Of a stretch of DNA of 64,000 bases, positions 3,664 to 23,299 are shown piece by piece. Position 1 is the first letter of the stretch. Every line of letters starts with the position of its first letter. The translations under genes were made by a program, and so were the position numbers. A model generated the notes under the pieces. It was not told the origin of the DNA, made no database searches, and saw only the letters and a program-made list of their open reading frames with translations. Source of the DNA: Candidatus Binatia bacterium (GTDB lineage Bacteria > Desulfobacterota > Binatia > DP-6); contig DATGIZ010000035.1 of the NCBI GenBank assembly GCA_035295465.1, positions 74,677-138,676 on the forward strand, written 5' to 3'.

Positions 3664-3719
3664 TGCCGGGACCGGGGCTCGAACCCGGACGACGGTTACC
3701 CGTCAGCGGATTTTAAGCC
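3664..3719. repeat. attL-like partial copy of the tRNA-Leu 3' half (about 54 nt, 2 mismatches)
   Basis: tgccgggaccggggctcgaacccggacgacggttacccgtcagcggattttaag matches 23135-23190; it covers the tRNA from its 3' end to the anticodon loop. Confidence 0.8.
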
Positions 3720-4508
3720 AGAGTCTGAGGCACCCTCGAGTCCACGCCATCCGCCAGAGCGGCAAGATTCTTCACTTTTGGGCGCCGCCGAGTCGGCTGG
3801 TGACGATCCAGTCGCCCCGACTTCACGGAGAGAAAACGGAGAGCGCGAGGGTGACGATGAGGCAGGCTGACCACGAGCCGCCTTCACCACCTCAGGTCCT
3901 TGAGACGCTGCGCCTCGGCACGCGCGTGCGGCTCACTTCGGGTCGCGAGGGCGTGATCCTCCGCTGCGGCTTCAGGTGATTCGGTACGACGGCGGCGCTC
4001 TCGACTACATCGCACCGAGAGCCGAGGTCGCGTGGTGACCCTACCCGACGTCATCCCGGCATCGTCCGAAACCGCCCCGGAATCGCCCCACGGCGCTGCG
4101 CAGGGCCGGTTAGAAACCCGTGACATGCCCCGACACGATGAAAGAGGCACCCCCCGGGCTGTCACAGGTTTTCCGACGAGCCTCCCGCCAGTAGAGCACC
4201 TCGCGATAGAGCGAGCGCTCATCCGCCATTCCGCACCCTCGCGCAGGGGAAGCCGAGAGGCAAGAGGCGGCACCGTCTCCCCTCCAGCGATAGGCTTAGG
4301 AGAGCCACGGGGGCGCGCCGCGCGTCACGACAGGCCGGCGCCCGGAACCTCACCCCCCGGGGTACCCCCCGCCCAGGCCCCTCGATCGGCCATCAAGGCG
4401 CGCGGACATTTGCGCCCCGTTTTTCGGGAGCGCCGCGCCGACGCATGCTTCGAGCCGCGGCGGCAGTGCGTTGACACGGGACGGCAGGGGGCGCAGGCAG
4501 GAGACACC

Positions 4509-5321
4509 GTGCAGATTGGGCTCGTCCTGCGCAACATGGGACCCGCCTCTCGGCCGGCGACCATCGCCGCGGTAGCGTGCGCGGCCGACGCCGAGCCCGC
4601 GATCGCGGACGTCTGGGTGACGGACCACATCGCGATCCCACCCGACGACGCCGAGGGCTCGGGCGGCCGCTACCTCGATCCACTCGCTACGCTCGCCTTC
4701 GTCGCCGGCTGCACGACGCGCGTGGGGCTCGGGACCTCCGTGCTCGTCTTGCCGTACCGCCCCGCGCTCCCGACCGCGAAGTGGGTGGCGACCGTGCAGG
4801 AGCTGTCGGGCGGGCGGCTCCGCCTCGGCGTCGGCGTCGGCTGGATGGCGGCCGAATTCCGCGCTGTCGGCGTGCCGCTTGCGCGCCGCGGCAAGGTGAG
4901 CGATGCGACCCTCGACTTCCTCGACCGCTGCTTCGCCGCCGACGAGGTCGAGGCCAACGGCCAGCGCTTCCTCTTCCTCCCGCGGCCGCCGCGGCCACGG
5001 CTCTTCGTCGGCGGCGCCCCGCCGCACGCGTTCGCCCGCGCGCTCCGGCACGGAGCGGGTTGGATGCCGATCGGGCTCGATCCCGACGCCCTCCGCCCGC
5101 TCGTTGCCGGGCTGCGCGACGCGGCCGTCCGCGCGGGAGGTCCCACCCCCGAGGTTGCCGTCATGACGCGACTCCCGTTGGACGACGGCGAACGGGCGCG
5201 GGACATCGTCGCGCGCTACGCCGACGCCGGGGCAACGCGGCTCATCCACGGCGCACCGTACGAGGATGAGGCGGGCGGCCGGCGCGTGGTCGAGCGGCTG
5301 GCGCGCACGGCGGCCGGTTGA
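4509..5321 (+). CDS. LLM class (luciferase-like) F420/flavin-dependent oxidoreductase
   Basis: GTG start VQIGLVLRN; LLM-like motifs GLGTSVLVLPYR and RLRLGVGVGW; the N-terminal part of the track ORF is rejected. Confidence 0.7.
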   Translation: MQIGLVLRNMGPASRPATIAAVACAADAEPAIADVWVTDHIAIPPDDAEGSGGRYLDPLATLAFVAGCTTRVGLGTSVLVLPYRPALPTAKWVATVQELSGGRLRLGVGVGWMAAEFRAVGVPLARRGKVSDATLDFLDRCFAADEVEANGQRFLFLPRPPRPRLFVGGAPPHAFARALRHGAGWMPIGLDPDALRPLVAGLRDAAVRAGGPTPEVAVMTRLPLDDGERARDIVARYADAGATRLIHGAPYEDEAGGRRVVERLARTAAG

Positions 5322-5391
5322 GCCCGGTCCCCGCGGGCCCCCCACACCAGGTCCTTCGATCGTCCATCAAGGTCCACACGCACCGTCCCCT

Positions 5392-8307
5392 TCAGCTCCA
5401 CGCACCGATCAACACAAACGGTGCCCAGAAGTATGGCGCCGCAAGCGATTCCTCCCGGCCGAGGGCATCGCTCTGAACCGTGCGCTCCATGAGCTCGATT
5501 CGCGCTAGCCGCAGGGCGTCCGCCTTCGTTGCGCCGTCCCGCAAGTGCCTGTAGAACGCCTCCATGAACAGGCTGGTGGACTGGTCGTTGACTGGCCACA
5601 AACTCGCCACCACCGCGCGGCTTCCAGCATATAGGAAGGCGCTTGTGAGGCCGACGAGACCCTCCCCGCGGTAAAGCTTCCCCTCAGCGGTGTTGCACGC
5701 GGACAAGACGACGAGTTCAGCGTTCAGTCGAAGATCGAATATCTCCGACATTTTGAGAAAGGGGTTTTCCCCATCCGTATCGGAAAAGACCAGCGTCGGC
5801 TGGTTGATCCACTTCACATCGTCGCCAACGACCGCGTGTGTAGCAAAATGCAGGATGCGATAGCGCCTTAGGTCGATGTCCTGCAGACGGCGCTTCGTCG
5901 CTCGCTCCCGCAGATTGATCACATCGGACCCGGGAGCTACCCCGTAGAGCGAGGCGATCCGTTGCACCTCGTTGGCCGAGTACGGCAGACGGCCAAAGCC
6001 GTGGCTCATGCGCTCGTAGGTACCGCGCACGTTGAACGCCACGGCACGGCCTTCGGGAGCGGACGAATATACGGGATCACCGAAAGCGAGAAGGGGCAAC
6101 TGTGGTTGCTCCTTGCTTACGCCCTCGCTGTAGCCCCGCCTCGTCAGGAAGACCAACACCGAGGCCGAGGGGGCGTAACTCACGGCATACTGCCTCGCAA
6201 GGTACGGCACCGACGACAGCGCGGGGTTCATCCTGCCGTCAGCATGTGCCGTTGGCCGAATGAGCGCCTCGAAGGGTAGGTAGCAGAGGGCCCCGGCGGG
6301 GATAACGACGACGTGCTCCCGCCCCCTGATCTCGTCGGCCGCTGGCTGAACCAGTATATGATAGAGCCGCTGACCGAGACGGATGTGGGACTTGATCTCA
6401 TCGGGACCTATGAGCGGGGTGTCAAGCGTCTTGCGGTAGCGTGCGACGAGGTCTGCGATACGGTCCCCTCTGGCAAGGGGGAGCAGACGCACATCGGTCC
6501 GGGTGACGACCCATAGCGCCGACACTTCCTCCCCCGATGGTCTCTCGCCCAGGGCATATTCCAGCAGGATGGTGTGGTCATCAAGGAGCGCCTGCACGTC
6601 TATGATGGAGGCCGTCTCGCTTCTCGCCGTCTGGGAACGGTCACTGGCCGCATGCGAAGAAGCCGTGGACACGGCCGCTGCCTCACTGGCGACGGCAGCC
6701 TCAAGGTCGGAGTGCGCCTGGCGACCAGCGGGGACCTGCTCCGAGAGGGCCCGCTTGAGGCTGCGAACCTGCTCCGATCCGGGCTCACGTGTCTCGTTAA
6801 TCATATCCAGGAGCGTGTGAGCCTTCCCCCTTTCGAGGTACTGGAATGCTTGAATAGCGTTCCCGTCGTTCCGTCCGTTTGCCTGAAGCTTCAGAGACGT
6901 CGCGACTGCATCTAAATAGAATTGCATTGCCTCGTCACGGACTGAGAGCTGCACACGGCCAGCCCGCTGTGCATGGCCGATCCGGTCAAGGATATCGATG
7001 GCCTGCGAATAGAGCGTCAGCGCCTCGTCGAGCTGGCCTTCCTCCTCTTTCACAGAGCCCATCTCATTGAGCAGGATATAGTCGTCCGGGTCGTGAACGC
7101 GCTGATCAACACGGCGAGCCTCTTCAAGTGCGCTCCACGCCGCCCGAAGCTGTCCAACCTGCTGGTATGCCAAGCCGAGGTTGTACAGGTCGCCGGCAAC
7201 TTCGCCGAGCGCCTCACGGCTCGCACGGGCAGCGACGCGGTGAAGCGCCAACGCCAACTTCGAGCATGCGATTGCGGAATCCACGTTGCCGTTCCAGGCT
7301 TCGACTTCCCCCAGCATTTGGAGGGCCACCGCGCCGTCCGGTGTCAGGGGGAACCCGTCGGCCCCGGCTGTCGTCTCCAACCAGTCCTGCAGTAGGCTCC
7401 GCAGGCTACTGAGTGCCGTCTGGGTGCATTGGCGCGTCTGCGCAGTGTCGTCTCGATCGTTGGCGACGGATGCGAGCATTCCGAGAGCGCGAAGCTGAAG
7501 ATTCCGATCGCCGGCCTCGCTGGCTTGACCGAGCGCATCGTGGAACCATCGCTCCGCCTCGTCCAAGTCCCCGACCAACTGGTGAACCTCGCCAAGGCCG
7601 ATAAGAGCCTCTGCGGCACGCTGGTGATCATCCGCGCGCAAAAAGTCCGCCAGCGCGGAATCGTATAGCTGAAGAGCCACGTCGTACCGGTCGCGATTCT
7701 GTGAGAAGAGGGCCTTGTCGAGCACCACTTGAGCTTCAAGAGCCCGGTCTCCGGTCTCGTGCGCCACCTCTCTCGCAGTCAGGAAAGACTGCTCGGCTTC
7801 CTTAGGCTTCCCCATGGCGTCCATCACGCGAGCTGAGGCCCGCAGCGCCGCGATCTCTGCGACCCGATCCCGTCGAGCTTGGGCGCGTTTGCGCCGTCCC
7901 TCGTAGAAGCGCACCGCCTTGGCTGGATCGGCTGGGCCTTGGACATCCGCCAACTCTCGCCCAAAGAGGTCAGCTAGACGCGCCGATCTCGAGGGAACCA
8001 GTTCAGTTAGAGCATCGAGCGCATCTGTCATCCGACCGAGCCGAAGAGAGGTCCGCACCAGAGCTACCAACACGTCCGGGTTCGCCGGATCGAGCTGTCG
8101 AACGCGCTGGAACGCCTCAAGCGCCTCCTGGTTGTGGCCGCCTTTCTCGAAGGCGAGGCCGGCACGGAAACATGCCCTGGTATCCCCGCGCTTCGAGGTG
8201 CTCCGGATTGCTTGGCAAGGATCGATGGCGCTTGCCACACCGCTGGCGGCGCTCACCAGAATGCACAAGCCCAGAATTCGCGTGGTGCTCACCGCAAGCT
8301 GCGTCAC
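5392..8307 (-). CDS. secreted TPR-repeat protein with C-terminal CHAT (caspase-like) protease domain
   Basis: N-terminal signal peptide MTQLAVSTTRILGLCILVSAASGVASA; multiple TPR-like repeats; the C-terminal CHAT domain has the His/Cys dyad (HFATHAV, LSACNTAEG); the GTG start overlaps the upstream gene stop (GTGA). Confidence 0.88.
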   Translation of the reverse strand: MTQLAVSTTRILGLCILVSAASGVASAIDPCQAIRSTSKRGDTRACFRAGLAFEKGGHNQEALEAFQRVRQLDPANPDVLVALVRTSLRLGRMTDALDALTELVPSRSARLADLFGRELADVQGPADPAKAVRFYEGRRKRAQARRDRVAEIAALRASARVMDAMGKPKEAEQSFLTAREVAHETGDRALEAQVVLDKALFSQNRDRYDVALQLYDSALADFLRADDHQRAAEALIGLGEVHQLVGDLDEAERWFHDALGQASEAGDRNLQLRALGMLASVANDRDDTAQTRQCTQTALSSLRSLLQDWLETTAGADGFPLTPDGAVALQMLGEVEAWNGNVDSAIACSKLALALHRVAARASREALGEVAGDLYNLGLAYQQVGQLRAAWSALEEARRVDQRVHDPDDYILLNEMGSVKEEEGQLDEALTLYSQAIDILDRIGHAQRAGRVQLSVRDEAMQFYLDAVATSLKLQANGRNDGNAIQAFQYLERGKAHTLLDMINETREPGSEQVRSLKRALSEQVPAGRQAHSDLEAAVASEAAAVSTASSHAASDRSQTARSETASIIDVQALLDDHTILLEYALGERPSGEEVSALWVVTRTDVRLLPLARGDRIADLVARYRKTLDTPLIGPDEIKSHIRLGQRLYHILVQPAADEIRGREHVVVIPAGALCYLPFEALIRPTAHADGRMNPALSSVPYLARQYAVSYAPSASVLVFLTRRGYSEGVSKEQPQLPLLAFGDPVYSSAPEGRAVAFNVRGTYERMSHGFGRLPYSANEVQRIASLYGVAPGSDVINLRERATKRRLQDIDLRRYRILHFATHAVVGDDVKWINQPTLVFSDTDGENPFLKMSEIFDLRLNAELVVLSACNTAEGKLYRGEGLVGLTSAFLYAGSRAVVASLWPVNDQSTSLFMEAFYRHLRDGATKADALRLARIELMERTVQSDALGREESLAAPYFWAPFVLIGAWS

Positions 8308-9941
8308 TTCTGACAGACGTGAACCTGCCGATACGGTATCGTCCCTTTGGCAAGCGCGGCGATCAACTCGCCGATCATCGAGGAGAGCTTGGGCGGGTGT
8401 TCGGGCTTGACGTACCGGGTCACTGTGTCGGCTCCGGCGTCTGCGTACCCGATCAAGTCAACGATCCCGTCACAGTCCACGTCGAAGTAGAACACGGTCG
8501 TCGCGGCCTTCGACTCAATGACGGTGTCGAGGGTGTTCTTCTCGTTGCGGCCGACGACAGCGTACTTCAGGGTCCGCGCCTGGGCGTCCCGATAAATGAG
8601 CCACATGTCGGGCGGCGGGACCGTGCTCTGCACATACGCGCCGGCGATTCCATGTCCGAATCGCTCCACGCGGTAGGCCGAGGGGGAAGACGGGGAGGTC
8701 ACAGGGGCAACCCGGCTCGTTGCCCGCTTGAGGAAATTGCTTACCTCGTCAGCGGCCACCGCATAGTTCAGCCCCTCCTCGCCCTCCCGCCGGAACGAGT
8801 TGATACCAATGATTTCTCCCTGATCGTCGAGGAGAGGGCCGCCGGAGTTGCCGGGGTTGATTGCGGTTTGGGTCTGAATGACCGTGCCCTGATGGAGCAG
8901 GTTGTCGCTACCCTTCCACTGGTAGTTCGGTCGAATCTGGCTAATGACGCCCGTGGTGTAGGTCCAGACCTCCCCCTCGGGATGGCCGATCGCATGGACG
9001 TCCTGCCCCACCTCGATCCTGCCTATATCGGCCACCGGAAGCCATGGGATGGTTCCGCGTGTTGGCGTCGCGACCTTCAGGAGCGCCAAGTCTGCGATCT
9101 GATCAACCTTCAAGAGCGTGGCGGCGTAGGCGGGCTCTTCCTCGATCGACACGCCGTGCTCCGGCTTGAACACCACAGCGATCTTGTTCGCATCTTCCAC
9201 GACGTGCGCGTTCGTCACGATGTGTCCGGCGGGGTCAACGACGACACCACTCCCAAGGCTCTTGTCAGTGACGAGCAGCACGGTGGCGGGGGCGGCCTTC
9301 TTGTAGAGCGCCACATCGTTCGGCCCACGTGTCTCTTCGAGGAGCAGGGTCTTGGGGAGCTGCTCCAGGGCGGAGAGGATCTGCTTGTCGAACGGCAACG
9401 AGGCAGCGGAGGGAGGCGGGGAGTGGCCAAGGACCGCTTGCTCTTGCGGTGAGAGGTCAGCGACCTCTTCCACGCGCGAGACAGCGCCTGGCGGACCGGG
9501 CGTCAGTTGGCGAGTGATGGTCAACCCTGTGAGACGCGTGACAACGAAAACCGCGACGCACACGGCGGCGAATTCCGCGGCGATGCGGGTGATAGGCACT
9601 CGGAAGAAAGTCTTCCAAGTCATCGAGACGACATGCGTGATTCGTGTCACCCGGGAGGGTGGCACGCCGACTCGCGCCGGGGACGACCCGGCCAGAAGCT
9701 TCGCCTTCCGGACGAGATCAGCAGGAGGGTCTTCTCCTGCCTCTTCGAGGCGCGCGAGCGCTCGCAGATCCGTCTGCCGATTCGTACAAGACGGACACGC
9801 CAGAAGATGCGACTCGACCGCGCGACGTTCTTCGGGGTCCAACTGCCCTTCCAGGTAAAGCCCCAGGGCAGCCGTTGACGGACAACCCGGGGCTCTTACG
9901 CGGCCCAGCCTCCGCAGCACATCGTCCGTGATCTCTTTCAC
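8304..9941 (-). CDS. anti-sigma factor (zf-HC2), TM helix, trypsin-like S1 serine peptidase fusion
   Basis: N-terminal CPSC...HLLACPSC zinc-finger anti-sigma motif; one TM segment AAEFAAVCVAVFVVTRL; an S1 protease domain with the H/D/S triad (TNAHVV, DLALLKV, GNSGGPL); a further C-terminal domain of unknown type. Confidence 0.8.
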   Translation of the reverse strand: MKEITDDVLRRLGRVRAPGCPSTAALGLYLEGQLDPEERRAVESHLLACPSCTNRQTDLRALARLEEAGEDPPADLVRKAKLLAGSSPARVGVPPSRVTRITHVVSMTWKTFFRVPITRIAAEFAAVCVAVFVVTRLTGLTITRQLTPGPPGAVSRVEEVADLSPQEQAVLGHSPPPSAASLPFDKQILSALEQLPKTLLLEETRGPNDVALYKKAAPATVLLVTDKSLGSGVVVDPAGHIVTNAHVVEDANKIAVVFKPEHGVSIEEEPAYAATLLKVDQIADLALLKVATPTRGTIPWLPVADIGRIEVGQDVHAIGHPEGEVWTYTTGVISQIRPNYQWKGSDNLLHQGTVIQTQTAINPGNSGGPLLDDQGEIIGINSFRREGEEGLNYAVAADEVSNFLKRATSRVAPVTSPSSPSAYRVERFGHGIAGAYVQSTVPPPDMWLIYRDAQARTLKYAVVGRNEKNTLDTVIESKAATTVFYFDVDCDGIVDLIGYADAGADTVTRYVKPEHPPKLSSMIGELIAALAKGTIPYRQVHVCQK

Positions 9942-10020
9942 GGCGACCTACCCTATCCTCGCTTCCCTGAGTGAGAGGACGTCCAAGGCACGCCTTTTTG
10001 TCTCCCGGGCCGGGCTGGGG

Positions 10021-10614
10021 CTACGATCCTGCTTCAAGGACGCCTGCTCTTCTCATACAGTCCTCGACCTTGGCCTTCGCGCGGAAGTGCTTCGATGCGA
10101 CGGTCCCTTGAGGAAGATCGAACACGGCGGCGATTTCGTCGTACGGGTAGCCTTCCGCCCGCCTCAGGAAGATCTGCCGATCGAGGTCGGTAAGTTCCTG
10201 CAGACAACGTACAGCTTGGTCGAGGAGCTGCCGCATGGTGGCGGCCTTCTCCGGATCCTGGCTCTCTGGCGTGAGCCATGTTGGGTCAGGTCGAGCACAT
10301 CCGGTGTCCTCTTCGGGGACCTCGCGGCGGCGAGCCTGCGCCCGCTGATAGTCCCTGATCTTATTGGCCGTGATGGTCCGCAGGAAGGCGCGAAACTCCC
10401 ATTCCGTATCCCCGTGGAACTGGTCCAGCGCCCCTTTCGCCAGAGTCAGGAAGACCTCCTGGAAGAGATCTTCCCGGCCGGCCTGTCCTAAGCCTTGAAC
10501 TTGCCTCAGGATTCCCCAGACGAGCCGCCTGTATCGGTCAACGAGAGCCTCCCAGACTGACCGTTCGAGGCCGGCGGCCCGTCTGATGCGCTCACGAATC
10601 TCCACCGCGACCAC
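10021..10614 (-). CDS. ECF subfamily RNA polymerase sigma-70 factor
   Basis: Region 2 is DLFQEVFLTLAKG; region 4 is YDEIAAVFDLPQGTVASKHFRAKAKV; it is co-oriented immediately upstream of the anti-sigma-protease gene. Confidence 0.85.
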   Translation of the reverse strand: MVAVEIRERIRRAAGLERSVWEALVDRYRRLVWGILRQVQGLGQAGREDLFQEVFLTLAKGALDQFHGDTEWEFRAFLRTITANKIRDYQRAQARRREVPEEDTGCARPDPTWLTPESQDPEKAATMRQLLDQAVRCLQELTDLDRQIFLRRAEGYPYDEIAAVFDLPQGTVASKHFRAKAKVEDCMRRAGVLEAGS

Positions 10615-10703: not shown

Positions 10704-11018
10704 ATGGGCGACGCGCGTTGGTTGAAGAAGGCCATGCTGGGGGCGGCCATGCTCTGCGTGGCATCGTCGTCCGCTTGGGCCGACGTCTACGTCCACGGCT
10801 ACTATCGCGGGAACGGGACGTACGTCCAGCCATACGTTCGCAGCGACCCGGACGGGAACCCGTACAACAACTGGAGCTACCCGGGGAACGTGAATCCGTA
10901 CACGGGTCGCGTCGCACCTGGCAACGCCGATACGTACCTTTACAACTACTACAACCGGAACGGGGGCAGTGGCTTCGGAACGCTGGATGACTCCGAAGAC
11001 GAGGGTGGCGATGATTGA
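10704..11018 (+). CDS. small secreted protein with NPY/YxxN repeats and a polyacidic C-terminus
   Basis: Signal peptide AMLCVASSSAWA; Tyr/Asn/Pro-rich repeats; tail DDSEDEGGDD; it is divergent from the ECF sigma gene and paralogous to 11738-12034. Confidence 0.55.
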   Translation: MGDARWLKKAMLGAAMLCVASSSAWADVYVHGYYRGNGTYVQPYVRSDPDGNPYNNWSYPGNVNPYTGRVAPGNADTYLYNYYNRNGGSGFGTLDDSEDEGGDD

Positions 11019-11415
11019 ACGGCATCAAAGTGTGCAGAGTCCGTCGGGCCTCCGGTCCGCATCTGTGCGGCTCGCGGGACTGGCCCTACTCATGGCACTT
11101 TCGCTGGGCGCAAGCGGCTGGGCGGCCACCGTTGCCGAGATTGCGAAGAACCCCACCGGCTTCGATCAGAAAACGGTGACGGTGAGTGGTACCGCCGAGG
11201 CGGTTAGCAGCCGCACCTCACGCCGGGGCAACCCGTATACGACGTTTCGGCTCGCTGGCCAGGGCGAGGTGGTCAAGGTCTTCAGCTTTGGGACGCTGCC
11301 GATCAAGCCAGGGGATCGGGTCCAAGTCCAAGGCACCTTTCAACACGTGAAACACGTCGGTCCTAGCACGTTCTATGACGAGATCACGGCATCGTCGGTT
11401 GAGCCCACCAAATAG
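11011..11415 (+). CDS. secreted hypothetical protein, possibly a BOF/OB-fold-like periplasmic protein
   Basis: ATG at 11011 overlaps the preceding stop; signal peptide LAGLALLMALSLGASGWAA; a beta-rich pattern of the OB-fold type. Confidence 0.45.
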   Translation: MIERHQSVQSPSGLRSASVRLAGLALLMALSLGASGWAATVAEIAKNPTGFDQKTVTVSGTAEAVSSRTSRRGNPYTTFRLAGQGEVVKVFSFGTLPIKPGDRVQVQGTFQHVKHVGPSTFYDEITASSVEPTK

Positions 11416-11457
11416 CATGACGGTGCTTTGGGGCGCGGGCCATCAAGGAGATACGAT

Positions 11458-11685
11458 ATGAGAAGGATCGTGACGCTTGGTACCCTGGTTGCAGTTGCCC
11501 TCCTCTTCTCGCCACCCGTTTTTCGACCTCACCGAGCCGCGGCGCGGTCGGGGGCGGGCACTGGCGTGCCAGCGAACGACGTCGAGAAAAGTGGCTGCTG
11601 CTCTTGGCACGGGGGCGTCTGCGGGTGCGAGGGCAACCGGGTGCAGTGCTGCGACGGCACACTGAGCCCAAGCTGCACCTGCTAG
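11458..11685 (+). CDS. small secreted Cys-rich peptide (bacteriocin/toxin-like)
   Basis: AAGGAG RBS before the ATG at 11458; a signal peptide then the mature tail CCSWHGGVCGCEGNRVQCCDGTLSPSCTC, with 9 Cys in 28 residues. Confidence 0.5.
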   Translation: MRRIVTLGTLVAVALLFSPPVFRPHRAAARSGAGTGVPANDVEKSGCCSWHGGVCGCEGNRVQCCDGTLSPSCTC

Positions 11686-11737
11686 AGCTGCGACTCTTCA
11701 CCCGAGGATCCGTCATCGAGCACGAGGAGGGGGAAAA

Positions 11738-15390: not shown

Positions 15391-15393
15391 GTC

Positions 15394-15564: not shown

Positions 15565-15582
15565 CAGCGCGTCGACGGGCGC

Positions 15583-16167
15583 ATGCGCACCGTGGTGACC
15601 CGCGCCGACTGGCTCGGCGCCTCTGGCCCCACGAACGCGTTCCTATGGGAGCAAGTGGCGCGGCGTCGTGGCGAAAGCCCCACAGCGCCCGTGGCCGTCG
15701 TGCGGTTGGAGGACCTTGCCCCGGGTGCAAGCGCCGACACCGCCCCCGACCCGCAGCACACGGCACCCGGGGCACCAGCCGTGGCCGTGGACCCGGGCGT
15801 GCCACTTCGCCGCCGCGCCGCCGGCGCTCCTCTGGCGCTCGCGATCACGTCAACGGCGCTCGCGTCAGGGAGGCGAGTCGAGTGCCCGCATTGCGGGGAG
15901 CACTTCACGCCGGCGCCGAAGCCCGGGAAGAAACCGACGCGCCGCCTGCCACCGGATGCCCGGTTCCTCAGTTGGCTCGCGGCTCGGGGCGGCAGTGCCT
16001 CCGTGAGCAGCATCGCCCGCCGGTTCCACCTGCGCCGAGCCGAGCTTGTCGTCCTCCTCGGCCGCTTCGCCCACGCCGGTGTCGTCTTGAACCACGACGG
16101 CCGTGGTGGCGGCTACCGCTTTCACTTGCTGCGCGTGCCCGCCCGCTCGAGCGCGCTGGCCCTGTAG
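15583..16167 (+). CDS. hypothetical protein with a CPHC zinc-ribbon-like motif
   Basis: ORF only; CPHCGEHF motif; no recognisable family. Confidence 0.35.
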   Translation: MRTVVTRADWLGASGPTNAFLWEQVARRRGESPTAPVAVVRLEDLAPGASADTAPDPQHTAPGAPAVAVDPGVPLRRRAAGAPLALAITSTALASGRRVECPHCGEHFTPAPKPGKKPTRRLPPDARFLSWLAARGGSASVSSIARRFHLRRAELVVLLGRFAHAGVVLNHDGRGGGYRFHLLRVPARSSALAL

Positions 16168-16648
16168 CTGGTGCGAGGTGGGTGCGGGTTGGGCACGCCC
16201 AGCTCCGCGGCCGCATCTCGCGCACGCGCCCGGCAGGCCGCGCCATGCGGAACGCAGTCCCACCGCTGGCACTAGTCGGTACCGGTCCGGATTAGGAATC
16301 CGCGGAGCGGTTCTAGGCAGCGGAACTCCCAGGGGTTTCCAGCGCCTCTCCGCCTTCTCTCCGCGTCGCGACCAAGCCGGGCTCGCCGATCTGCCGTGAT
16401 CGCTGCTGAGGCGATCGCGAAGGGGGGGACTATAGCACTTTGGCCGTTTGCCGGGCTGGGGCACGCCCCTTCCCGGAATTACTAAAGCGGCTCACAAGAG
16501 CTTCGACGCGCTGCGTTAGCACCGAGCGCACCGAGCCCTCCGTGCACTCACGGCGTCCTCGATGGAGCCCCGACGTGCGACGTCGGCGGTGCGACGTGCT
16601 TACTCGGCCGTCGTCTCGCCGGACTGTCTCGTTCGCTCGATTCGTTTG

Positions 16649-17321: not shown

Positions 17322-18107
17322 CTACTTCTTGGAGATCCCGCCTGACTTCGGCTCCAGACTCTCGCGACGCTGGCGCTCAGCATCCTCGTCTGTAGAGAAT
17401 ATGCGCGCCCGCTGATAGCGCCGAATACGCCGGCGCATCTCGTCATCGCTCCACGGTGGCCACCTCCCGGTCCTCATGTAGTGCTTGAAGCGCTCACGGT
17501 AGGTCCGTTCGACTTCGGGGAAACCACGGGCAAGCCGGCGGTCCCACCCTCTGCCGCTGGCGAGGGCCGCCCCCAATGCCCGACGGTCCTCTGGATCGGA
17601 TTGGACTTGGACTGCGCGCTCCAAGAACTGCCGCACCCGCGGGTCGGTGCAGAGTGCGATCGGCTTGAGACGAACAATATCCGCAATTGCTCGCCGAATC
17701 GCCCGCTCGACCCCTTCCAGTGCTCCCGGTGGCGTCGGCGCCGCGAAGGAGCGCTCGTATTGAGGGCGGTAGTTCTCTCGGAGGGCCAGCGCCTCGTCGA
17801 GGGCCTTGCTCGCCTCCTCCACGGTGCGCGCGGCGCCACGAATGGCTCGGCCGCTCTGCCGATGGAGCGGTCGACTTCCCACCACCTCGGCGAAGAGGTG
17901 ATCGAGCGGGGAGCCGAGCGCGCGGGCCAACCGGTTGAGGGTGCTGAGTTTGGGGTCGCCACCGCGCTCGATCGTCCCGATCTGAGGCTGCGAAACTCGC
18001 GCCTTGCGCGCGAGTTCACGAAGGCTCCACCCGCGGTCGTCGCGGAGGCGCCGCACCGTTCGACCGACCCGCTGCCCGAGTGACCCGATAGGTGGACTGA
18101 TCAGCAC
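17322..18107 (-). CDS. XRE family helix-turn-helix transcriptional regulator with a C-terminal extension (island repressor-like)
   Basis: WSLRELARKARVSQPQIGTIERGGDPKLSTLNRLARALG is a cro/C1-type HTH. Confidence 0.72.
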   Translation of the reverse strand: MLISPPIGSLGQRVGRTVRRLRDDRGWSLRELARKARVSQPQIGTIERGGDPKLSTLNRLARALGSPLDHLFAEVVGSRPLHRQSGRAIRGAARTVEEASKALDEALALRENYRPQYERSFAAPTPPGALEGVERAIRRAIADIVRLKPIALCTDPRVRQFLERAVQVQSDPEDRRALGAALASGRGWDRRLARGFPEVERTYRERFKHYMRTGRWPPWSDDEMRRRIRRYQRARIFSTDEDAERQRRESLEPKSGGISKK

Positions 18108-18225
18108 GGATGATGCTGGCGTGCAAGCCCTTGCGCCGCCTGTTCATCCTCGCTGCCGCCTTCGACCACTTTGTGCCCTGGATTCAGCCTTGGTGCCCTT
18201 GAAGCGGTGGGCTACCTCCCTACCC

Positions 18226-18456
18226 ATGATGACAAGTCCCGACCGCCTACTGACCTGCCCGGAGGTGGCACATCGGCTAGCGGTGAGCCCCTCAACCATC
18301 AGGCTCTGGACCGCGCAGCGCCGCATCCCGTCGGTCAAGATCGGTCCCAGCGCAGTCCGATACCGCTGGGACGACGTCGAGGCCGTGATCCGTGCCGGCG
18401 AGCGGCCCCGTCTCGACAGAAGCGGCCGTGAGACCCCACCGCCGGAGGCGGCGTGA
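18226..18456 (+). CDS. excisionase/AlpA-like helix-turn-helix DNA-binding protein
   Basis: LLTCPEVAHRLAVSPSTIRLWTAQRRIPSVKIGPSAVRYRWDDVEAVI is an excisionase-family HTH; it is divergent from the XRE regulator. Confidence 0.62.
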   Translation: MMTSPDRLLTCPEVAHRLAVSPSTIRLWTAQRRIPSVKIGPSAVRYRWDDVEAVIRAGERPRLDRSGRETPPPEAA

Positions 18457-18712: not shown

Positions 18713-19543
18713 ATGAGCGCCGAGATGCTCCTCGACGCCGCAGTTGCCTACGCCACCCGCGGGTGGCGCGTGTTCCCGTGCTCGCAGAACAAGGCCCCGC
18801 GCACGCCGCACGGGGTTCTCGACGCGACGACCGACACCACGACTATCCGGGCATGGTGGACGAAGCACCCCGCGCCGAGCATCGGCATCGCCACGGGGCA
18901 GGGCTCCGGCTTGGTCGTGCTCGACGTCGACCCGCGCCACGGCGGCGACGATGCACTTGCTGAGCTTGGGCAGCAGTACCGGACCCTGCCGGCCACCCCG
19001 CGGGTGATCACGGGGGGCGGCGGGACACACATCTACCTGCGCCACCCCGGCAGCGTCGTCCCGTGCTCCACCGGCCGGCTCGGTAGGGGCCTCGATGTCC
19101 GCGGCGCTGGCGGCTACGTGATCGCGCCGCCGAGCGGGCATGCGAGCGGTCGGTCCTACATCTGGATGATCGGCTACGGCCCCGACGACGTGCCGCTGGC
19201 CGCTACACCCCCCTGGCTGCTCGGGCTCATCGCGTCGACAGCGGGCCATCGGTTGCGGAGGAACGGCACCGCGCTGGTCATCCCGTTCGGCGAGCGCAAC
19301 GCGACGCTGGCGCGCTTTGGTGGCCTGCTCCGGCGCTACGGCCTGAACGCGGTCGCCATCCGGGACGCGTTGACCGCGATCAACCGCGAGCACTGCACGC
19401 CGTCATTGCCCGCCAATGAGGTGGAGAGGATCGCCGCGAGCGTCTCGCGTTATACCCCGGCCCTTCTCCCGCCTTTGCACCCTTTTCGCGCCGGGACGCC
19501 GGCCGACGCGCTGGTCGCCCGGGCGCTGGGCCTCTTGCCATGA
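18713..19543 (+). CDS. bifunctional DNA primase/polymerase (PrimPol) N-terminal domain protein
   Basis: GWRVFPC...K.P...GV.DAT.D...I..WW...P..SIGIATG..SGLVVLDVD ... GGGTHIYL is the canonical PrimPol pattern. Confidence 0.85.
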   Translation: MSAEMLLDAAVAYATRGWRVFPCSQNKAPRTPHGVLDATTDTTTIRAWWTKHPAPSIGIATGQGSGLVVLDVDPRHGGDDALAELGQQYRTLPATPRVITGGGGTHIYLRHPGSVVPCSTGRLGRGLDVRGAGGYVIAPPSGHASGRSYIWMIGYGPDDVPLAATPPWLLGLIASTAGHRLRRNGTALVIPFGERNATLARFGGLLRRYGLNAVAIRDALTAINREHCTPSLPANEVERIAASVSRYTPALLPPLHPFRAGTPADALVARALGLLP

Positions 19544-20790
19544 AGGTGCTCACACCGACCCCCGAGATGTTCCCGCCGCCCCTTAACCTGCTGCGCGACG
19601 CCTGTGCGCACACGGAGGCGCATTCGGCTGCCGTCGCAGTGCAGTTTCTCGTGGCGGTCGGCAACATGGTCGGCCGCGAGGCCCACACGTACGTCGGGGA
19701 GACGCGTCACGGAACCAACGAGTTCGCGCTGATCGTTGGCCCGACTGCGACGGGCCGCAAGGGGGATTCCAAGAACACGGCGGTAGCGCCCCTCGAAGGC
19801 GCAGATAGCGAGTGGTTCGCGAGCATCACGGGGGGGCTTAGCAGCGGGGAAGGGCTGATCCACGCGGTGCGGGATCCTGTCTACGGCGCCAACAAGAAGG
19901 GCGAAGAGGTGCTGGTCGACCCCGGCGTCACGGACAAGCGCCTCTTGTGCGTCGAGACCGAGTTCTCCTCGGTACTCAAGCAGTTCCGCCGCGAGCACAA
20001 CATCCTGTCGAACACGCTGCGCGAGGCGTGGGATGGGAAGCGCGTCCTGCGCACATTGACCAAGACCTCACCAACGCGGGCAACCGATGCACACATTTCG
20101 CTCATCGGGCACGCCACCCCTGAGGACCTGCGCGCCTACCTCGCCGACCTCGATGTCGCGAACGGCGTTGTCAACCGGTTTCTGCTCACCGCGTGCAGCC
20201 GGCCACGCCTCGTCCCTTGTCCCCGCCGCCTCCCGGACGAGGTGCGGCGGCGCGTGACCGAGCACGTGCGCGGCGTGCTCAGTCACGCGCGCAACATCGG
20301 CCATGTTCCACGAACCGAGGCGGCGGAGGCACTGTGGTGCAAGCTCTACCTTGACGAGAAGGGGCTCGCAGCCAAGCGGCCCGGCCTCCTTGGCGCACTG
20401 CTTGCCCGCGGACCTGCACACCTCACCCGCCTCGAGTTGATCTTCGCGCTGCTCGCCAGCGCCCGGGCGCGGGACGTCAACCACCTCATCGCGGCCGCCG
20501 CGTGGTGGGACTATTGCGTCGCTTCCGCGGAGGTCATCTTCGCTGACCGCACCGGGAACGACGCCGCCGATCGCATCCGGGCAGAGCTGCTGCCGGGCGA
20601 GAGCATGACGTTGTCGGAGATCCGCGAGCAGCTCTTCGCGAACAAGATCGCCTCGGGTCGACTCCGCGATGCCTTGGCCCTGCTCCGGGACCTGGGCGAG
20701 GTGACGTTAACGAAGCGCGAGACCGATGGTCGTTCCGCCGTCGTGGTAACCCGCGTTGTCGCTGCTGCCGCGGCTGCGGGGGGAGCGTGA
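19540..20790 (+). CDS. DUF3987 domain protein (PrimPol-associated helicase-like replication protein)
   Basis: The ATG overlaps the PrimPol stop (ATGA); this is the typical partner of PrimPol in integrative elements. Confidence 0.65.
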   Translation: MKVLTPTPEMFPPPLNLLRDACAHTEAHSAAVAVQFLVAVGNMVGREAHTYVGETRHGTNEFALIVGPTATGRKGDSKNTAVAPLEGADSEWFASITGGLSSGEGLIHAVRDPVYGANKKGEEVLVDPGVTDKRLLCVETEFSSVLKQFRREHNILSNTLREAWDGKRVLRTLTKTSPTRATDAHISLIGHATPEDLRAYLADLDVANGVVNRFLLTACSRPRLVPCPRRLPDEVRRRVTEHVRGVLSHARNIGHVPRTEAAEALWCKLYLDEKGLAAKRPGLLGALLARGPAHLTRLELIFALLASARARDVNHLIAAAAWWDYCVASAEVIFADRTGNDAADRIRAELLPGESMTLSEIREQLFANKIASGRLRDALALLRDLGEVTLTKRETDGRSAVVVTRVVAAAAAAGGA

Positions 20791-21200
20791 CCGTGCGTGC
20801 GAAAGGGGAGGGGGAAAAGGTTGAAAAGGGCAGGAAAGCCTCTTTTCACGCCTTTTCCACCTTTTCTCCCAAGGAGATGAATCTGCTCGAGATCGCTCGG
20901 CGAGCACTGGATGTTTCCGGTCCCTACGAATGCCCGAGTCAACCAGTGCCGCGCGCTATTTTGCCGAACGCTCCGCTGGCGCTCAGCGAGGCCACCGGCC
21001 GCCGGCTGGCCGTGCTCTACGCCGAGCTGGACCCCGTCGAGCGGCGCCGGCTCGACCTTGAGGCTGAGGGCGGCGACGGGCTCGCCCGGCTGGTGCTCGA
21101 CGCCCTGGCGATGGCCGACGAGGCGACCGGAACCGTCCATGAGAGCGGCGAGGGCCGCCGGTGCGACGCCCGTCCTGGCGAGGCGGAGGTGGCGTTCTAG
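20787..21200 (+). CDS. hypothetical protein
   Basis: GTG start overlapping the upstream stop; no recognisable domain. Confidence 0.35.
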   Translation: MTVRAKGEGEKVEKGRKASFHAFSTFSPKEMNLLEIARRALDVSGPYECPSQPVPRAILPNAPLALSEATGRRLAVLYAELDPVERRRLDLEAEGGDGLARLVLDALAMADEATGTVHESGEGRRCDARPGEAEVAF

Positions 21201-21203
21201 GCG

Positions 21204-21539
21204 ATGGCCGACACCCTCGACATCCCCACGCTGCTACCGCCGGAAATGGTTGCCTCGCTGCCGCCGGAGCAGCTCCCCGCCCTGGCGCTATACCTTGCGG
21301 GCCTCCAGTCGGCAGTGGCTGGGCGGCTCTATCAGATGCAGCCCCTGTCCCGGCGTGAGCACGCCGAGCAGCCGAGCCGGCTCCTCACGGCCAAGGAAGT
21401 TGCCGCGCGGACGAGGCTCTCGGTGGACTACCTCTACCGCCGGGCCGACCGACTTCCCTTTGCGCGCCGGATCGGGCGCGCCGTACGATTTGACGAGACC
21501 GGCCTTGAGCGTTGGCTTGCAGGCCGCCGGCCCCGTTGA
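21204..21539 (+). CDS. helix-turn-helix DNA-binding protein (AlpA/excisionase-like)
   Basis: LLTAKEVAARTRLSVDYLYRRADRLPFARRIGRAVRFDETGLERWL. Confidence 0.6.
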   Translation: MADTLDIPTLLPPEMVASLPPEQLPALALYLAGLQSAVAGRLYQMQPLSRREHAEQPSRLLTAKEVAARTRLSVDYLYRRADRLPFARRIGRAVRFDETGLERWLAGRRPR

Positions 21540-21571
21540 CGGGCGCTTGTAAGATATGACAGTATCGCCAT

Positions 21572-21769
21572 ATGGCACGGTCGAAGCGCCAAGGGAAATC
21601 GGCACCGGCGCGGCCCGAGTCTGAGATGGTCATCACCACGATTGCACTCGATCCCGACATCCATCGGCGGCTCCGGCACCTCGCGATCGAAGATGGGACG
21701 AGCTTTCGTGACCTCATTCGGGCGGCGATCGCCGACTTCCTGACGAAGCGCGAGAGGAGGACGACCTAG
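21572..21769 (+). CDS. ribbon-helix-helix (CopG-like) protein
   Basis: ITTIALDPDIHRRLRHLAIEDGTSFRDLIRAAIADFL. Confidence 0.6.
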   Translation: MARSKRQGKSAPARPESEMVITTIALDPDIHRRLRHLAIEDGTSFRDLIRAAIADFLTKRERRTT

Positions 21770-21772
21770 CCC

Positions 21773-23299
21773 ATGGACGCGCTCACGCTCAAGGAGAAAC
21801 AGCGGCGCCTCGCCGCGCTGATGGAGGCCATCCTCGTCGGCCGAATCTCACCCGAGGAAGGTAAACGTCGGGCGAAGGCGATCAACGATGCCCCGACTGC
21901 CGAGTCCGTCCACGCCCCGAGCGGCCCACCGCCCCAGGAGCCATCGGGCGGCGGCTCGCGGCGCGCGCGGGGGGGTGGCCGTGTCTTCCGCTACAAGGGC
22001 AGTCGCTTCTGGTGGCTCGCCTACTACCACCACGGCCGCGAGATTCGCGAGAGCGCCGGGACGGAGGACCGCGAAAAGGCGGAGCGGATGCTCCGCAAGC
22101 GCGTAGGCGCGGCGAACACGCCGCACTTCACCGACCCCACCACGCAGCGGCTGTCCTTCGACGACCTAGCCGAGGGGTACCTGCGGGACTATCGCCTCAA
22201 CGGGCGGCGTTCCCTTCCCGAGGCGGAGCGCTATGTCCGCCACTTGGGCGAGGCATTCGGGTTCGACCGCGCCCTCGCAATCACCTCCGACCGCGTGGCC
22301 GTCTACACGGAGCAGCGGCTCGCCGCGGGGGCGCGGCCCGCGACCGTCAACCGCGAGCTTGCCGCCCTCCGGCGGATGTTCCGGCTCGCCGAGGAGCGGC
22401 TACGCTACCGGCCACGCATCCGATTCCTCGCCGAGGACAACGTGCGCGAGGGCTTCTTGGAGCCCGCCGACTTCGAGGCGGTCTGCGGCCAGCTGCCTGC
22501 CGACGTTGCCGACGCGGTGCGATTCGCCTACCTCGTCGGCTGGCGCCGCGGCGAGGTTCGGACGCTCGAGTGGCGCGACGTTCACCTCGAGCACCGCGGG
22601 GGCGAGGTCGTCGGTGGGACGATCCGCCTGCGGCGCGAGCGTAGCAAGACGAAGCGTAGCAAGCTGCTCGTCCTCCGGGCCGACCTGCTCGCGCTCATCG
22701 CTCGCCGTGCTGCCCGTCGGCGGCTCGATTGCTCCCTCGTCTTTCACTGCGACGGGAAGCCGCTGGGCGACTTTCGCCGGCCGTGGCGCGCGGCCTGTGA
22801 GGCGGCTGGGATGTCGGGGCGTCTCTTTCACGATCTCCGGCGTTCGGCCGTGCGGAACATGGTGCGGGCCGGCGTGCCCGAGCGGGTCGCCATGGCCATC
22901 TCGGGGCACCGCACACGTAGCGTGTTCGATCGCTACAACATCGTGAGCGAGGACGACATCGCTGCGGCCGTCGAGCGGACGGCCCACTACGTGATGCGCG
23001 AGGCCGAGAACGAGCGCCGCGTGGAGCCGCTCGCGGCCGCCGTCGGCCACGAACACGGAGAGAACACGGAGAGTGGCCCCCAGCGCAGGGGCGGGCGGTC
23101 GGCGGGAAGCGCGTCTAAGCGCCTGAATTCACAATGCCGGGACCGGGACTCGAACCCGGACGACGGTTGCCCGTCAGCGGATTTTAAGTCCGCCGCGTCT
23201 GCCAATTCCGCCATCCCGGCATGCATCCTCATCGCCGCAGTACGGCGTCCACCACCGTCACACCCGGTGGCTCGCTTGCGGGCTCGAGGAGCCGCGTGA
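21773..23299 (+). CDS. int: tyrosine-type recombinase/integrase (C-terminal extent uncertain; the ORF reads through the tRNA/att region)
   Basis: Arm-binding N-terminus, core-binding domain and a catalytic domain with HDLRRS..GHRT..VFDRY; adjacent to tRNA-Leu and attR. Confidence 0.85.
   Translation: MDALTLKEKQRRLAALMEAILVGRISPEEGKRRAKAINDAPTAESVHAPSGPPPQEPSGGGSRRARGGGRVFRYKGSRFWWLAYYHHGREIRESAGTEDREKAERMLRKRVGAANTPHFTDPTTQRLSFDDLAEGYLRDYRLNGRRSLPEAERYVRHLGEAFGFDRALAITSDRVAVYTEQRLAAGARPATVNRELAALRRMFRLAEERLRYRPRIRFLAEDNVREGFLEPADFEAVCGQLPADVADAVRFAYLVGWRRGEVRTLEWRDVHLEHRGGEVVGGTIRLRRERSKTKRSKLLVLRADLLALIARRAARRRLDCSLVFHCDGKPLGDFRRPWRAACEAAGMSGRLFHDLRRSAVRNMVRAGVPERVAMAISGHRTRSVFDRYNIVSEDDIAAAVERTAHYVMREAENERRVEPLAAAVGHEHGENTESGPQRRGGRSAGSASKRLNSQCRDRDSNPDDGCPSADFKSAASANSAIPACILIAAVRRPPPSHPVARLRARGAA
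23135..23190. repeat. attR-like: the 3' half of tRNA-Leu, duplicated at 3664-3719
   Basis: 52/54 identity with the distal copy. Confidence 0.8.
23135..23220 (-). tRNA. tRNA-Leu (anticodon UAA), class II with a long variable arm
   Basis: The reverse complement gives GCCGGGATGGCGGAATTGGCAGACGCGGCGGACTTAAAATCCGCTGACGGGCAACCGTCGTCCGGGTTCGAGTCCCGGTCCCGGCA: a 7-bp acceptor stem, anticodon loop CTTAAAA, and a GGTTCGAGTCC T-loop. Confidence 0.9.

Follow-up and report, generated by a model that had tools for sequence, protein, structure and literature searches.

A probable integrative genomic island in a tRNA-Leu(UAA) gene of a Candidatus Binatia bacterium

How did the 3' half of a tRNA gene come to lie 19.5 kb away from the intact gene that it matches? 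This question is raised by a metagenome-assembled genome (MAG) of Candidatus Binatia (GenBank assembly GCA_035295465.1), where a piece of a tRNA-Leu(UAA) gene occurs twice on the 144-kb contig DATGIZ010000035.1 and a gene for a tyrosine integrase (int) adjoins the complete copy. We analyzed the surrounding 64-kb stretch ("the window"), and all coordinates below are positions within it. Very probably, positions 3664-23188 are a site-specific integrative genomic island of about 19.5 kb that a tyrosine integrase inserted into the tRNA-Leu(UAA) gene, by the mechanism that we describe below as the best explanation. An integrative element had already been proposed from the letters of the DNA by themselves (the sequence-only reading), and this idea is borne out: a regenerated tRNA gene and a displaced 3' fragment bound the island, and the integrase lies just inside the tRNA-proximal end. 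The proteins of the window are HLK12355-HLK12378, and an exact-sequence look-up found identical DNA in JGI, ENA, and Logan assemblies as well. Open reading frames (ORFs) of the island were scanned for domains and families from Pfam, PADLOC, PHROGs, and NCBIfam.

The tRNA-Leu gene and its displaced 3' half

At the right end of the island, ARAGORN and Rfam agree that the tRNA-Leu(UAA) gene is intact (the Rfam tRNA model has a full-length match at 23135-23220, with 58.7 bits). At the left end, there is just the 3' part of such a gene. A repeat finder reports the two as a direct repeat of 60 nt (3658-3717 and 23129-23188) with 95% identity. Within this repeat, the tRNA-derived core of 54 nt (3664-3717 and 23135-23188) is in direct orientation with a spacing of 19,471 nt and has two mismatches: G at 3677 corresponds to A at 23148, in the T loop, and A at 3698 corresponds to G at 23169, in the loop of the variable arm. 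Because both mismatches are in loops, either version of the core would fold as a tRNA. Precisely at the 5' edge of the anticodon loop, the two copies cease to agree: 3718 is C and 23189 is T. The sequence-only reading had described a 54-nt direct duplication of the 3' part of tRNA-Leu, with two mismatches and with the right-hand copy inside an intact tRNA, and the alignment and the tRNA models uphold each of these points. It had the starts of both copies right, while its ends (3719 and 23190) were 2 nt too far, given where the identity breaks.

Might the repeat be a chance match, or the relic of a tRNA duplication that is unrelated to the integrase? All that favors this idea is that tRNA-like fragments are frequent in genomes in general. 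But the core repeat has a BLAST E-value of 1.5e-22, with 54 of 56 nt identical, and when we searched with 28 nt of the core and tolerated up to 3 mismatches, only these two sites matched (0.00 matches expected, from zero matches in 100 shuffles). Also, the fragment runs exactly from the anticodon loop to the 3' end, it is in direct orientation, the integrase adjoins the intact gene, and homologous integrases are found beside tRNA-Leu genes in four other contigs (see below). We consider this explanation to be refuted. Tandem islands would show up as a third or internal copy of the attachment (att) site; none was found in the 64-kb window by BLAST or with the 28-nt piece (up to 3 mismatches).

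The arrangement also has the features by which the Islander pipeline delimits islands in tRNA genes (tDNA islands). As in its first criterion, a full-length tRNA gene is paired with a directly oriented fragment of itself, and as in its second, an integrase gene (21773-23299) overlaps an island of between 2 and 200 kb, here 19.5 kb (PMC4383910). Islands with an anticodon-centred attP, the att site of the element, are the commoner class among tDNA islands (PMC4383910).

The mechanism would be as follows. The integrase would have recombined the attP of the element with the chromosomal tRNA-Leu(UAA) gene, where attP carried its own copy of the tRNA sequence that begins at the anticodon loop and extends slightly beyond the 3' end. 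The strands would have been exchanged within the 7-nt anticodon loop, so we infer a crossover in 23182-23188, and the anticodon stem might have served as core-type sites. Integration would have left a regenerated tRNA gene beside int (attR) and would have displaced the original 3' half to the far end (attL). Synteny of the right flank with the closest relative stops at 23182, which is within the anticodon loop.

Several other observations concern the tRNA gene and its surroundings. A perfect palindrome of 23 nt (3589-3611) lies between the stop codon of the GNAT gene and the displaced 3' end of the tRNA, and it is probably a terminator that the GNAT gene and the tRNA gene, originally convergent, had in common. 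A break in the Logan assembly falls at this palindrome and not at the att site. We asked if enrichment of TTA codons could explain why tRNA-Leu(UAA) is the target, and the counts (6 of 5356 codons in the island's genes, compared to 1 of 2111) are uninformative. Finally, 4 kb beyond the island's right end there is a tRNA-Sec gene (27430-27524, plus strand; found by ARAGORN, and by Rfam RF01852 with 74.8 bits), with no integrase nearby.

An integrase gene that crosses the attachment site

The product of int is a tyrosine recombinase (PF00589, 55.6 bits versus a cutoff of 27.1). Its ORF has 508 uninterrupted codons, with a GC content at third codon positions (GC3) of 0.85, and none of the catalytic residues (R258, K292/K294, H353-x-x-R356, H379, and Y388) varies when the protein is aligned with eight homologues. 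The integrase is complete and not a pseudogene. What the sequence-only reading had missed is how far the ORF extends. After the catalytic domain, the frame meets no stop codon before the att core, and it stays open across the core and the whole tRNA (antisense to it), ending at 23299 in host DNA. If 23188 is joined to 3718 in silico, as in the attP of an excised element, then the predicted Int has 522 amino acids and its last 50 residues are different. Because there is no stop codon on the element's side of the core, the C-terminal tail of Int varies with the state of the element (508 amino acids if integrated, a predicted 522 if excised). The part that is swapped begins beyond the last conserved block (about residue 425), and its exchange might have a regulatory effect. 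Mx8 and SSV are known examples of integrases that reach across attP (PMC6070905, PMC4383910), and the Islander pipeline explicitly allows for them (PMC4383910).

Among 8000 scored candidates, 3287 were homologous to Int at E <= 1e-10, and the closest Int from outside this population is 74% identical. For the closest variants of Int, P0001 (see below) and P0002, no genomic context is on record. We did not find a homologue with a solved structure by sequence at E <= 1e-3. When we compared Int to 50,697 phage records (using tblastn), the best matches were integrases from Pseudomonas and Burkholderia phages, at 28% identity, so there was no closely related island in this phage collection (Int at most 28% identical).

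To place the island among its relatives, we fetched the context of related integrases from three lineages (L159/L160, L161, and L202/L203). These integrases are 57-74% identical to ours overall (74% for L159/L160 and 57% for L161). In all of them, int adjoins an intact tRNA-Leu gene and reads through it; the anticodon is UAA in L159/L160 and CAA in L161 and L202/L203. Just upstream of int, an HTH_17 gene is found in L159/L160 and L202/L203, and it is followed by a ribbon-helix-helix (RHH) gene in L202/L203 and by an unannotated small ORF in L159/L160. L161 has two small ORFs upstream of int, without family annotation. The replication genes differ among the related elements (DUF3631; a DnaG-type zinc ribbon with VapE; or AAA_25). 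More distant relatives, with Int about 40% identical, are in 33 IMG/VR contigs, where they lie beside tRNA-Leu, Lys, Pro, or Gln genes. Because related integrases adjoin tRNA genes elsewhere, the island belongs to a widespread family of integrative elements that target tRNA genes. The family has in common an integrase beside tRNA-Leu, usually with an HTH_17 gene and sometimes with an RHH gene upstream, and its replication and cargo modules are interchangeable. In one relative (L161:1-4123), whose Int is 57% identical and lies at tRNA-Leu(CAA), the cargo includes all parts of a type I restriction-modification system (HsdR/S/M), which supports the view that these elements are vehicles for defence genes.

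The 20-mer CACGGAGAGAACACGGAGAG at 23054-23073, in the 3' tail of int, recurs at 3824-3843 with 19/20 positions matching (0.01 expected by chance). It contains two copies of the octamer ACGGAGAG, which occurs 6 times in the 64 kb; 4 of the 6 make up the two tandem pairs, which are on the plus strand with 11-nt phasing. The pairs fall on both arms of the reconstructed attP, symmetrically about the core. A more general form of the pair, ACGGASAR-N3-ACGGASAR, is found once each in L159, L160, and L161, at the equivalent place on the P arm upstream of the core, and in no other fetched locus except for copies of this island; the motif is also absent from the searched IMG/VR contigs. Judging by their position and their recurrence, the paired octamers are probably arm-type sites that are bound by the N-terminal domain of Int. 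Int would then bridge the core and the ACGGAGAG arm sites to assemble the intasome. Within the island, there is also a third, weaker copy of the pair, CGCGGAGAGAAGGCGGAGAG, with 3 mismatches (16346-16365, minus strand, intergenic), which may be due to chance.

A variant of the integrase differs in this repeat. A co-occurring protein of 441 amino acids (P0001, from run SRR5579871) is reproduced exactly in silico by removing one 11-nt unit (AACACGGAGAG) and a further 9 nt (residues SRR) from the window's int. Because the loss of one 11-nt unit shifts the frame, this variant stops at a TAA codon 15 nt before the att core. It could reflect slippage in the candidate arm site, in a real subpopulation, or else a difference in assembly.

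Backbone and cargo genes

The features of the island are listed in Table 1. All of the genes that the sequence-only reading had named (the integrase, RHH, HTH_17, PrimPol, and DUF3987 genes, the divergent XRE and HTH_17 genes, and the CHAT, Panacea, and deaminase genes) are present according to Pfam. Pfam also agrees with the order that it gave for the right-end module (HTH_17, RHH, and then the tyrosine integrase next to the tRNA) and with the PrimPol/DUF3987 pair and the divergent XRE and excisionase-like regulators.

Table 1. Features of the island, with window coordinates
Feature	Position	Strand	Evidence and remarks
attL: displaced tRNA-Leu(UAA) 3' fragment	3658-3717	minus	3664-3717 = anticodon loop to 3' end, plus 6 nt past the tRNA end
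P' arm: two ACGGAGAG octamers, 11 nt apart	3825-3843	plus	candidate arm-type site, 108-126 nt from the anticodon-loop crossover
F420-dependent LLM-class oxidoreductase	4509-5321	plus	Pfam Bac_luciferase 3.8e-34; TIGR03619 176 bits vs. cutoff 167; GC 0.76
Secreted TPR-CHAT protease-like protein	5392-8307	minus	Pfam CHAT 6.5e-67 and TPRs; signal peptide, His/Cys dyad motifs
zf-HC2 anti-sigma factor with HtrA/DegS-like serine protease	8304-9941	minus	Pfam zf-HC2, Trypsin_2; NCBIfam anti-sigma and HtrA models; PDB HtrA/DegS matches
ECF sigma factor, first gene of operon	10021-10614	minus	Pfam Sigma70_r2, r4_2; TIGR02937 91.8 bits vs. cutoff 42.9
Four small predicted secreted proteins, divergent from sigma operon	10704-12034	plus	hydrophobic N-termini; gene calls in other assemblies
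Members of this group	10704-11018; ~11011-11415; 11458-11685 (Cys-rich); 11738-12034 (NPY-repeat)	plus	translations
Panacea (SocA-like) antitoxin-domain protein	12733-13212	plus	Pfam SocA_Panacea 6.8e-20
Candidate toxin partner, 159 aa	13213-13692	plus	charged N-terminal half, two C-terminal transmembrane helices; role suggested by position
Anti-phage dCTP deaminase, 524 aa	13816-15390	plus	PADLOC dCTPase (PDLC02373) 4.6e-152, 506 bits; NCBI name anti-phage dCTP deaminase
194-aa protein, weak winged-helix (Rrf2/MarR) signal	15583-16167	plus	E-values 1e-3, below cutoffs; frame backed by GC-phase analysis
197-aa protein, two transmembrane helices	16649-17242	minus	no family matches (Pfam, PADLOC, PHROGs, NCBIfam)
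XRE-family HTH regulator, repressor-like half of divergent switch	17322-18107	minus	Pfam HTH_3 6.9e-13
HTH_17 (excisionase/AlpA-type), 87 aa called in Logan contig	~18193-18456	plus	Pfam HTH_17 3.9e-7; divergent from XRE, leads replication operon
Primase-polymerase, Prim-Pol and PriCT_1	18713-19543	plus	Pfam 1.8e-48, 5.4e-10; PHROG primase/polymerase families
DUF3987 protein	19540-20790	plus	Pfam DUF3987 1.3e-13; phrog_3022 2.2e-5, central part of phage primase-helicase families
137-aa protein, int-proximal operon	20787-21200	plus	no family match; gene call in Logan contig
HTH_17, candidate recombination directionality factor (Xis-like)	21204-21539	plus	Pfam HTH_17 2.1e-9; position kept in L159, L202
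Ribbon-helix-helix protein directly upstream of int	21572-21769	plus	Pfam RHH_1, Antitox_RHH; RHH at equivalent position in L202
Tyrosine integrase, 508 aa integrated	21773-23299	plus	Pfam Phage_integrase aa 246-391
P arm: two ACGGAGAG octamers, 11 nt apart, in int 3' tail	23055-23073	plus	candidate arm-type site, 109-127 nt from crossover
attR: intact tRNA-Leu(UAA)	23134-23221	minus	ARAGORN tRNA-Leu(taa); 23135-23188 = element-supplied core

The backbone consists of an integration and excision operon (the 137-aa, Xis-like HTH_17, RHH, and Int genes), a replication operon (the small HTH_17, PrimPol-PriCT, and DUF3987 genes) under the control of the divergent XRE regulator, and, at the far end, the F420-type oxidoreductase. 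The HTH_17 protein, the RHH protein, or both might act as directionality factors. The XRE/HTH_17 pair might switch on replication of the excised circle by PrimPol and DUF3987, and given these genes, an excised circle is presumably able to replicate. For the oxidoreductase, the ribosome-binding site and a gene call of 270 amino acids at JGI indicate that GTG at 4509 is the likely start. About 790 nt to the right of attL lack a convincing gene.

Base composition distinguishes the backbone from the cargo. The GC content is 0.62-0.68 over 5-18 kb versus 0.70-0.80 in the flanks. Considering individual genes, the accessory genes at 5.4-17 kb have GC contents of 0.62-0.65, the int, PrimPol, DUF3987, and LLM genes have 0.68-0.76, and sampled flanking genes have 0.70-0.73. 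Because GC content splits the backbone from the accessory genes, the backbone has the look of DNA native to high-GC hosts, and the cargo seems to be a more recent acquisition. The cargo had been called AT-richer than the host. This is correct for the accessory block but not for the left 1.7 kb of the island (3.7-5.4 kb), which includes the LLM oxidoreductase and has a host-like GC content of 0.72-0.76.

Since the GC content drops sharply at about 5.4 kb, another explanation is that there were two insertions. In this case, 3.7-5.4 kb would be an older, host-like segment with the LLM gene, and the real left end of a younger element would be near 5.4 kb. But no further copy of the att core, whole or partial, occurs in the window, and the octamer pair at 3825-3843 matches the pair on the int side, which ties the left end to the integrase. 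Also, int and PrimPol have host-like GC contents (0.71-0.72) as well, so a high GC content goes with the backbone and a low one with the accessory genes. We consider a composite of two insertions to be highly unlikely.

The best-characterized cargo gene encodes an anti-phage dCTP deaminase. This annotation is solid: residues 19-464 of the predicted protein match the curated NCBIfam equivalog NF041025 with 435.9 bits (cutoff 400). Defence by nucleotide depletion has reportedly been described for dCTP deaminase by Tal et al. in 2022, and under the name AvcD by Hsueh et al. in 2022. Like the known anti-phage deaminases, this one has a full-length match above the cutoff of the curated equivalog; its activity is predicted from the sequence.

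Just upstream is a putative toxin-antitoxin pair. The Panacea-domain protein scores 72.5 bits for PF13274 (cutoff 25.7), and its stop codon (13210-13212) abuts the start of the toxin candidate at 13213. Toxin-antitoxin pairs with a Panacea domain (PanA/SocA) are said to have been described by Kurata et al. in 2022. As in those pairs, a gene for a Panacea protein is followed by a gene for a small membrane protein, with no gap from stop to start, and by its adjacent toxin candidate the antitoxin would have the PanA architecture. Unlike in those pairs, the partner matches no described toxin family (it has no match in Pfam, PHROGs, PADLOC, or NCBIfam), and the Panacea protein scores 104 bits for NCBIfam SocA_antitoxin, which is under the equivalog cutoff of 190. 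It is plausible that the pair is defence cargo.

The third cargo module is a three-gene operon on the minus strand (5392-10614) that encodes a sigma factor of the extracytoplasmic function (ECF) type, an anti-sigma factor, and a TPR-CHAT protein. The anti-sigma factor has an N-terminal zf-HC2 domain (HxxxCxxC), one transmembrane helix (residues 115-143), and a periplasmic protease domain with an H/D/S triad. In PADLOC, the CHAT and trypsin genes have just weak, domain-level matches to known defence systems (BovA with 18 bits, and the protease part of RT-Protease). In a sequence search of PDB, the CHAT protein matches TPR proteins only, with no match to a CHAT domain or to a DdvA-like protein. 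Its relatives on plasmids are at most 32% identical. The four small secreted proteins that are divergent from this operon have no family matches in Pfam or PHROGs; two of them (10704-11018 and 11738-12034) have repeats that are rich in NPY and tyrosine, and acidic C-terminal tails. We found no convincing ECF-type promoter motif (GGAAC-N-CGT) in the intergenic region between the sigma factor and the secreted proteins. Thus, of the cargo that the sequence-only reading had called defence-like, the dCTP deaminase is solid and the Panacea pair is plausible, but the CHAT module is a signalling operon with no significant match to a defence system in PADLOC.

This operon resembles DdvS/DdvA, the regulator of a defence island in Myxococcus xanthus (PMC11506125). 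What the two share is a place beside defence genes and three jointly encoded parts: an ECF sigma factor, a zinc-finger anti-sigma factor with a single transmembrane helix, and an exported TPR-CHAT that has a His/Cys dyad. In DdvA, the zinc anti-sigma and TPR-CHAT parts are joined in one polypeptide, whereas here the TPR-CHAT is a separate secreted protein and the periplasmic domain of the anti-sigma factor is an HtrA/DegS-like serine protease. One could imagine that the island has an envelope-sensing switch, a three-part variant of DdvS/DdvA in which the ECF sigma factor, the zinc anti-sigma factor with its DegS/HtrA-like site-1 protease, and the secreted TPR-CHAT would sense phage attack or envelope damage and would induce the defence genes, the group of small secreted proteins, or even the element's excision and replication. 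At the same time, the 11-nt arm repeat would slip between one and two units and would thereby toggle between the 441-aa Int that stops before attP and the read-through form, so that mobility would be phase-variable. We think that this combined scenario is quite improbable.

Is the element a satellite of a phage? It might be of the P4 type or a phage-inducible chromosomal island (PICI), in which case it would be excised when triggered by a helper, replicated by its own primase, and packaged in the helper's capsids, and its defence genes would protect the host population. P4-like and PICI-type satellites with defence hotspots have reportedly been described by Rousset et al. in 2022. Like those satellites, the element has an integrase, an Xis-like gene, a repressor switch, genes of the primase/helicase type, variable defence cargo, and a tRNA target. 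Its size of 19.5 kb, along with int, the Xis-like gene, the XRE/HTH switch, the primase-polymerase and helicase-like protein, and the defence cargo, would fit, as would the relatives of Int (about 40% identical) in 33 viral contigs from IMG/VR; the authors of Islander also raise the idea that satellites may account for many of the tDNA islands that are not prophages (PMC4383910). However, unlike in satellites, no gene for hijacking or packaging into capsids was recognized: we saw no capsid-redirection gene, small terminase, cos or pac site, structural gene, or other virion gene, and PHROGs matches only the primase and DUF3987, although several ORFs lack a family. The primase is a PrimPol and not of the P4 alpha type. 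In addition, IMG/VR has no close relative of Int or DUF3987 and lacks the arm motif, and integrases in the phage database are at most 28% identical. Overall, we consider a satellite to be unlikely. As for conjugative or mobilizable elements, the ORFs that were scanned over 3.7-23.2 kb contain no relaxase, coupling protein, or type IV secretion family from Pfam or PHROGs, with an oriT still possible. An integrative island of this kind could move from cell to cell by hitch-hiking on a phage or on a conjugative element.

Mobility and comparison with known systems

Several results weigh against an integrated and mobile element, or at least do not confirm it. First, no empty attB was found. The best match to the hydrolase of the right flank, among 185,579 species genomes, is 37% identical, so this collection does not include a close relative. 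The closest relatives that we found are 85-89% similar and are not syntenic across the site. An 89%-identical relative of the hydrolase is on 16 contigs, and the right flank of this relative aligns with 38312-23182 of the window, which ends inside the anticodon loop. In place of the GNAT flank, these relatives (L069-L078) have a tRNA that is cut short, and then unrelated DNA. Because the synteny ends in the loop and is followed by a tRNA fragment and unrelated DNA, this site is a hotspot of recombination, whose breakpoints fall in the anticodon loop, and not an empty site.

In L069:10987-12990 (GCA_037025185.1, JBAIHV010000788.1), the hydrolase gene comes first, then a 5' piece of tRNA-Leu(UAA) that is 39 nt long and breaks off just behind the anticodon loop, and then 1.5 kb of DNA with 63% GC that includes an EcsC-like gene and a 154-aa gene. 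Next in line is a second, complete tRNA-Leu(UAA) gene, missed by ARAGORN, in which about 400 nt of inserted DNA separate U34 from A35. We expect the same arrangement in L070-L078. The insert matches the Rfam model for group I introns at full length, with 42.9 bits and E = 4.8e-9, just under the gathering score of 50. Group I introns are known in bacterial tRNA genes (bioRxiv 10.1101/2020.01.27.920355).

The left flank did not yield an empty site either. To the left of the island are genes for a GMC oxidoreductase, a protein like subunit 3 of gluconate dehydrogenase, an SDR, and a GNAT. Relatives of the GMC oxidoreductase (86-89%, from JGI metagenomes) are syntenic only to about position 2128, with no tRNA nearby, so the SDR and GNAT genes (2130-3660) are lineage-specific. 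Homologues of the GNAT (at most 79%) are in other contexts (PNP / GNAT / groESL). That no empty site turned up is due to how sparsely this lineage has been sampled, and it is no refutation of the island.

Second, the excised form was not seen. We found no circular or attP junction, and the predicted 522-aa Int is absent from a collection of 15 billion proteins. A Logan contig of 20,311 bp, which we had considered as a potential excised circle, proved to be window 3593-23903 in the integrated form, 100% identical and spanning both att sites, and was rejected. A JGI contig from another sample, which was fetched as far as the CHAT gene, carries the island across attL, and it too is 100% identical and integrated. 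Third, the roles that we assign to the arm sites and to the replication genes rest on position and family only, and the tail of Int beyond about residue 425 is not conserved as a protein in the eight-homologue alignment, so its exchange may be irrelevant.

These results raise the alternative that the island is a fixed and immobile remnant, which was integrated as proposed but no longer excises, possibly because the integrase is less active in its integrated state, with antisense-tRNA and host sequence in place of its tail, as reported for the altered integrase of Mx8. The Logan and JGI contigs are in the integrated form only, and the attP type of Int is missing from the protein collection. Also, the C-terminus of Int differs between the two states, and integration of Mx8 reportedly yields a recombinant int whose 3' end is new and whose specificity is changed (PMC6070905). 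However, the att copies, the octamer pairs, and the int, Xis-like, RHH, PrimPol, and DUF3987 genes are all intact, with coding-like GC3, and the mismatches in the core are confined to loops of the tRNA. Furthermore, assemblies report the majority state, so rare excision would be missed. A fixed remnant is possible, but on balance we think it somewhat unlikely. We argue instead that the element is functional, as its intact att sites, arm motifs, int, Xis-like gene, and replication genes suggest. Its ability to excise, which the sequence-only reading had called probable, is inferred, and the data speak neither for nor against current mobility.

To our knowledge, the soil phylum Binatia has no cultured representative and no described mobile elements. 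This island would provide Binatia (Binatota) with a cleanly delimited and apparently intact mobile defence island. The integrase, attP (the core and the candidate arm sites), and the attB in tRNA-Leu could become parts of genetic tools for high-GC bacteria. The island also adds one example each to three themes: defence genes (the dCTP deaminase and the Panacea pair) on integrative elements that bear a primase, integrase genes that span attP, as in Mx8, and an ECF sigma/protease module that travels with defence genes.

How similar is this integrase gene to that of Mx8? The intP/attP/intX arrangement of Mx8 reportedly goes back to Tojo 1996 and Magrini 1999, as cited in PMC6070905. In Mx8, attP is reported to lie inside int, so that integration provides int with a different 3' end (PMC6070905). 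Similarly, the attP core of our element is inside the int frame, so that integration into a tRNA gene swaps the 3' end of int. Unlike Mx8, our element is not a phage, and the integrases have no detectable homology: Mx8 was not among the 58 phage records (of 50,697) that matched Int at E <= 1e-5 by tblastn. Another difference is that the part that would be exchanged here is a non-conserved tail, after about residue 425, for which a regulatory effect is only possible.

The island as a whole corresponds to the anticodon-centred tDNA islands from Islander (PMC4383910). Like those islands, it has an intact tRNA gene and a displaced 3' fragment in direct orientation, with a tyrosine integrase inside; its block of identity runs from the anticodon loop to the 3' end; and its size is within the range of non-prophage islands. 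There is no essential difference from this class, and the host here is from an uncultured lineage of Binatia. Overall, islands of this type are already well known, and this one is ordinary but well preserved and leaves current concepts unchanged.

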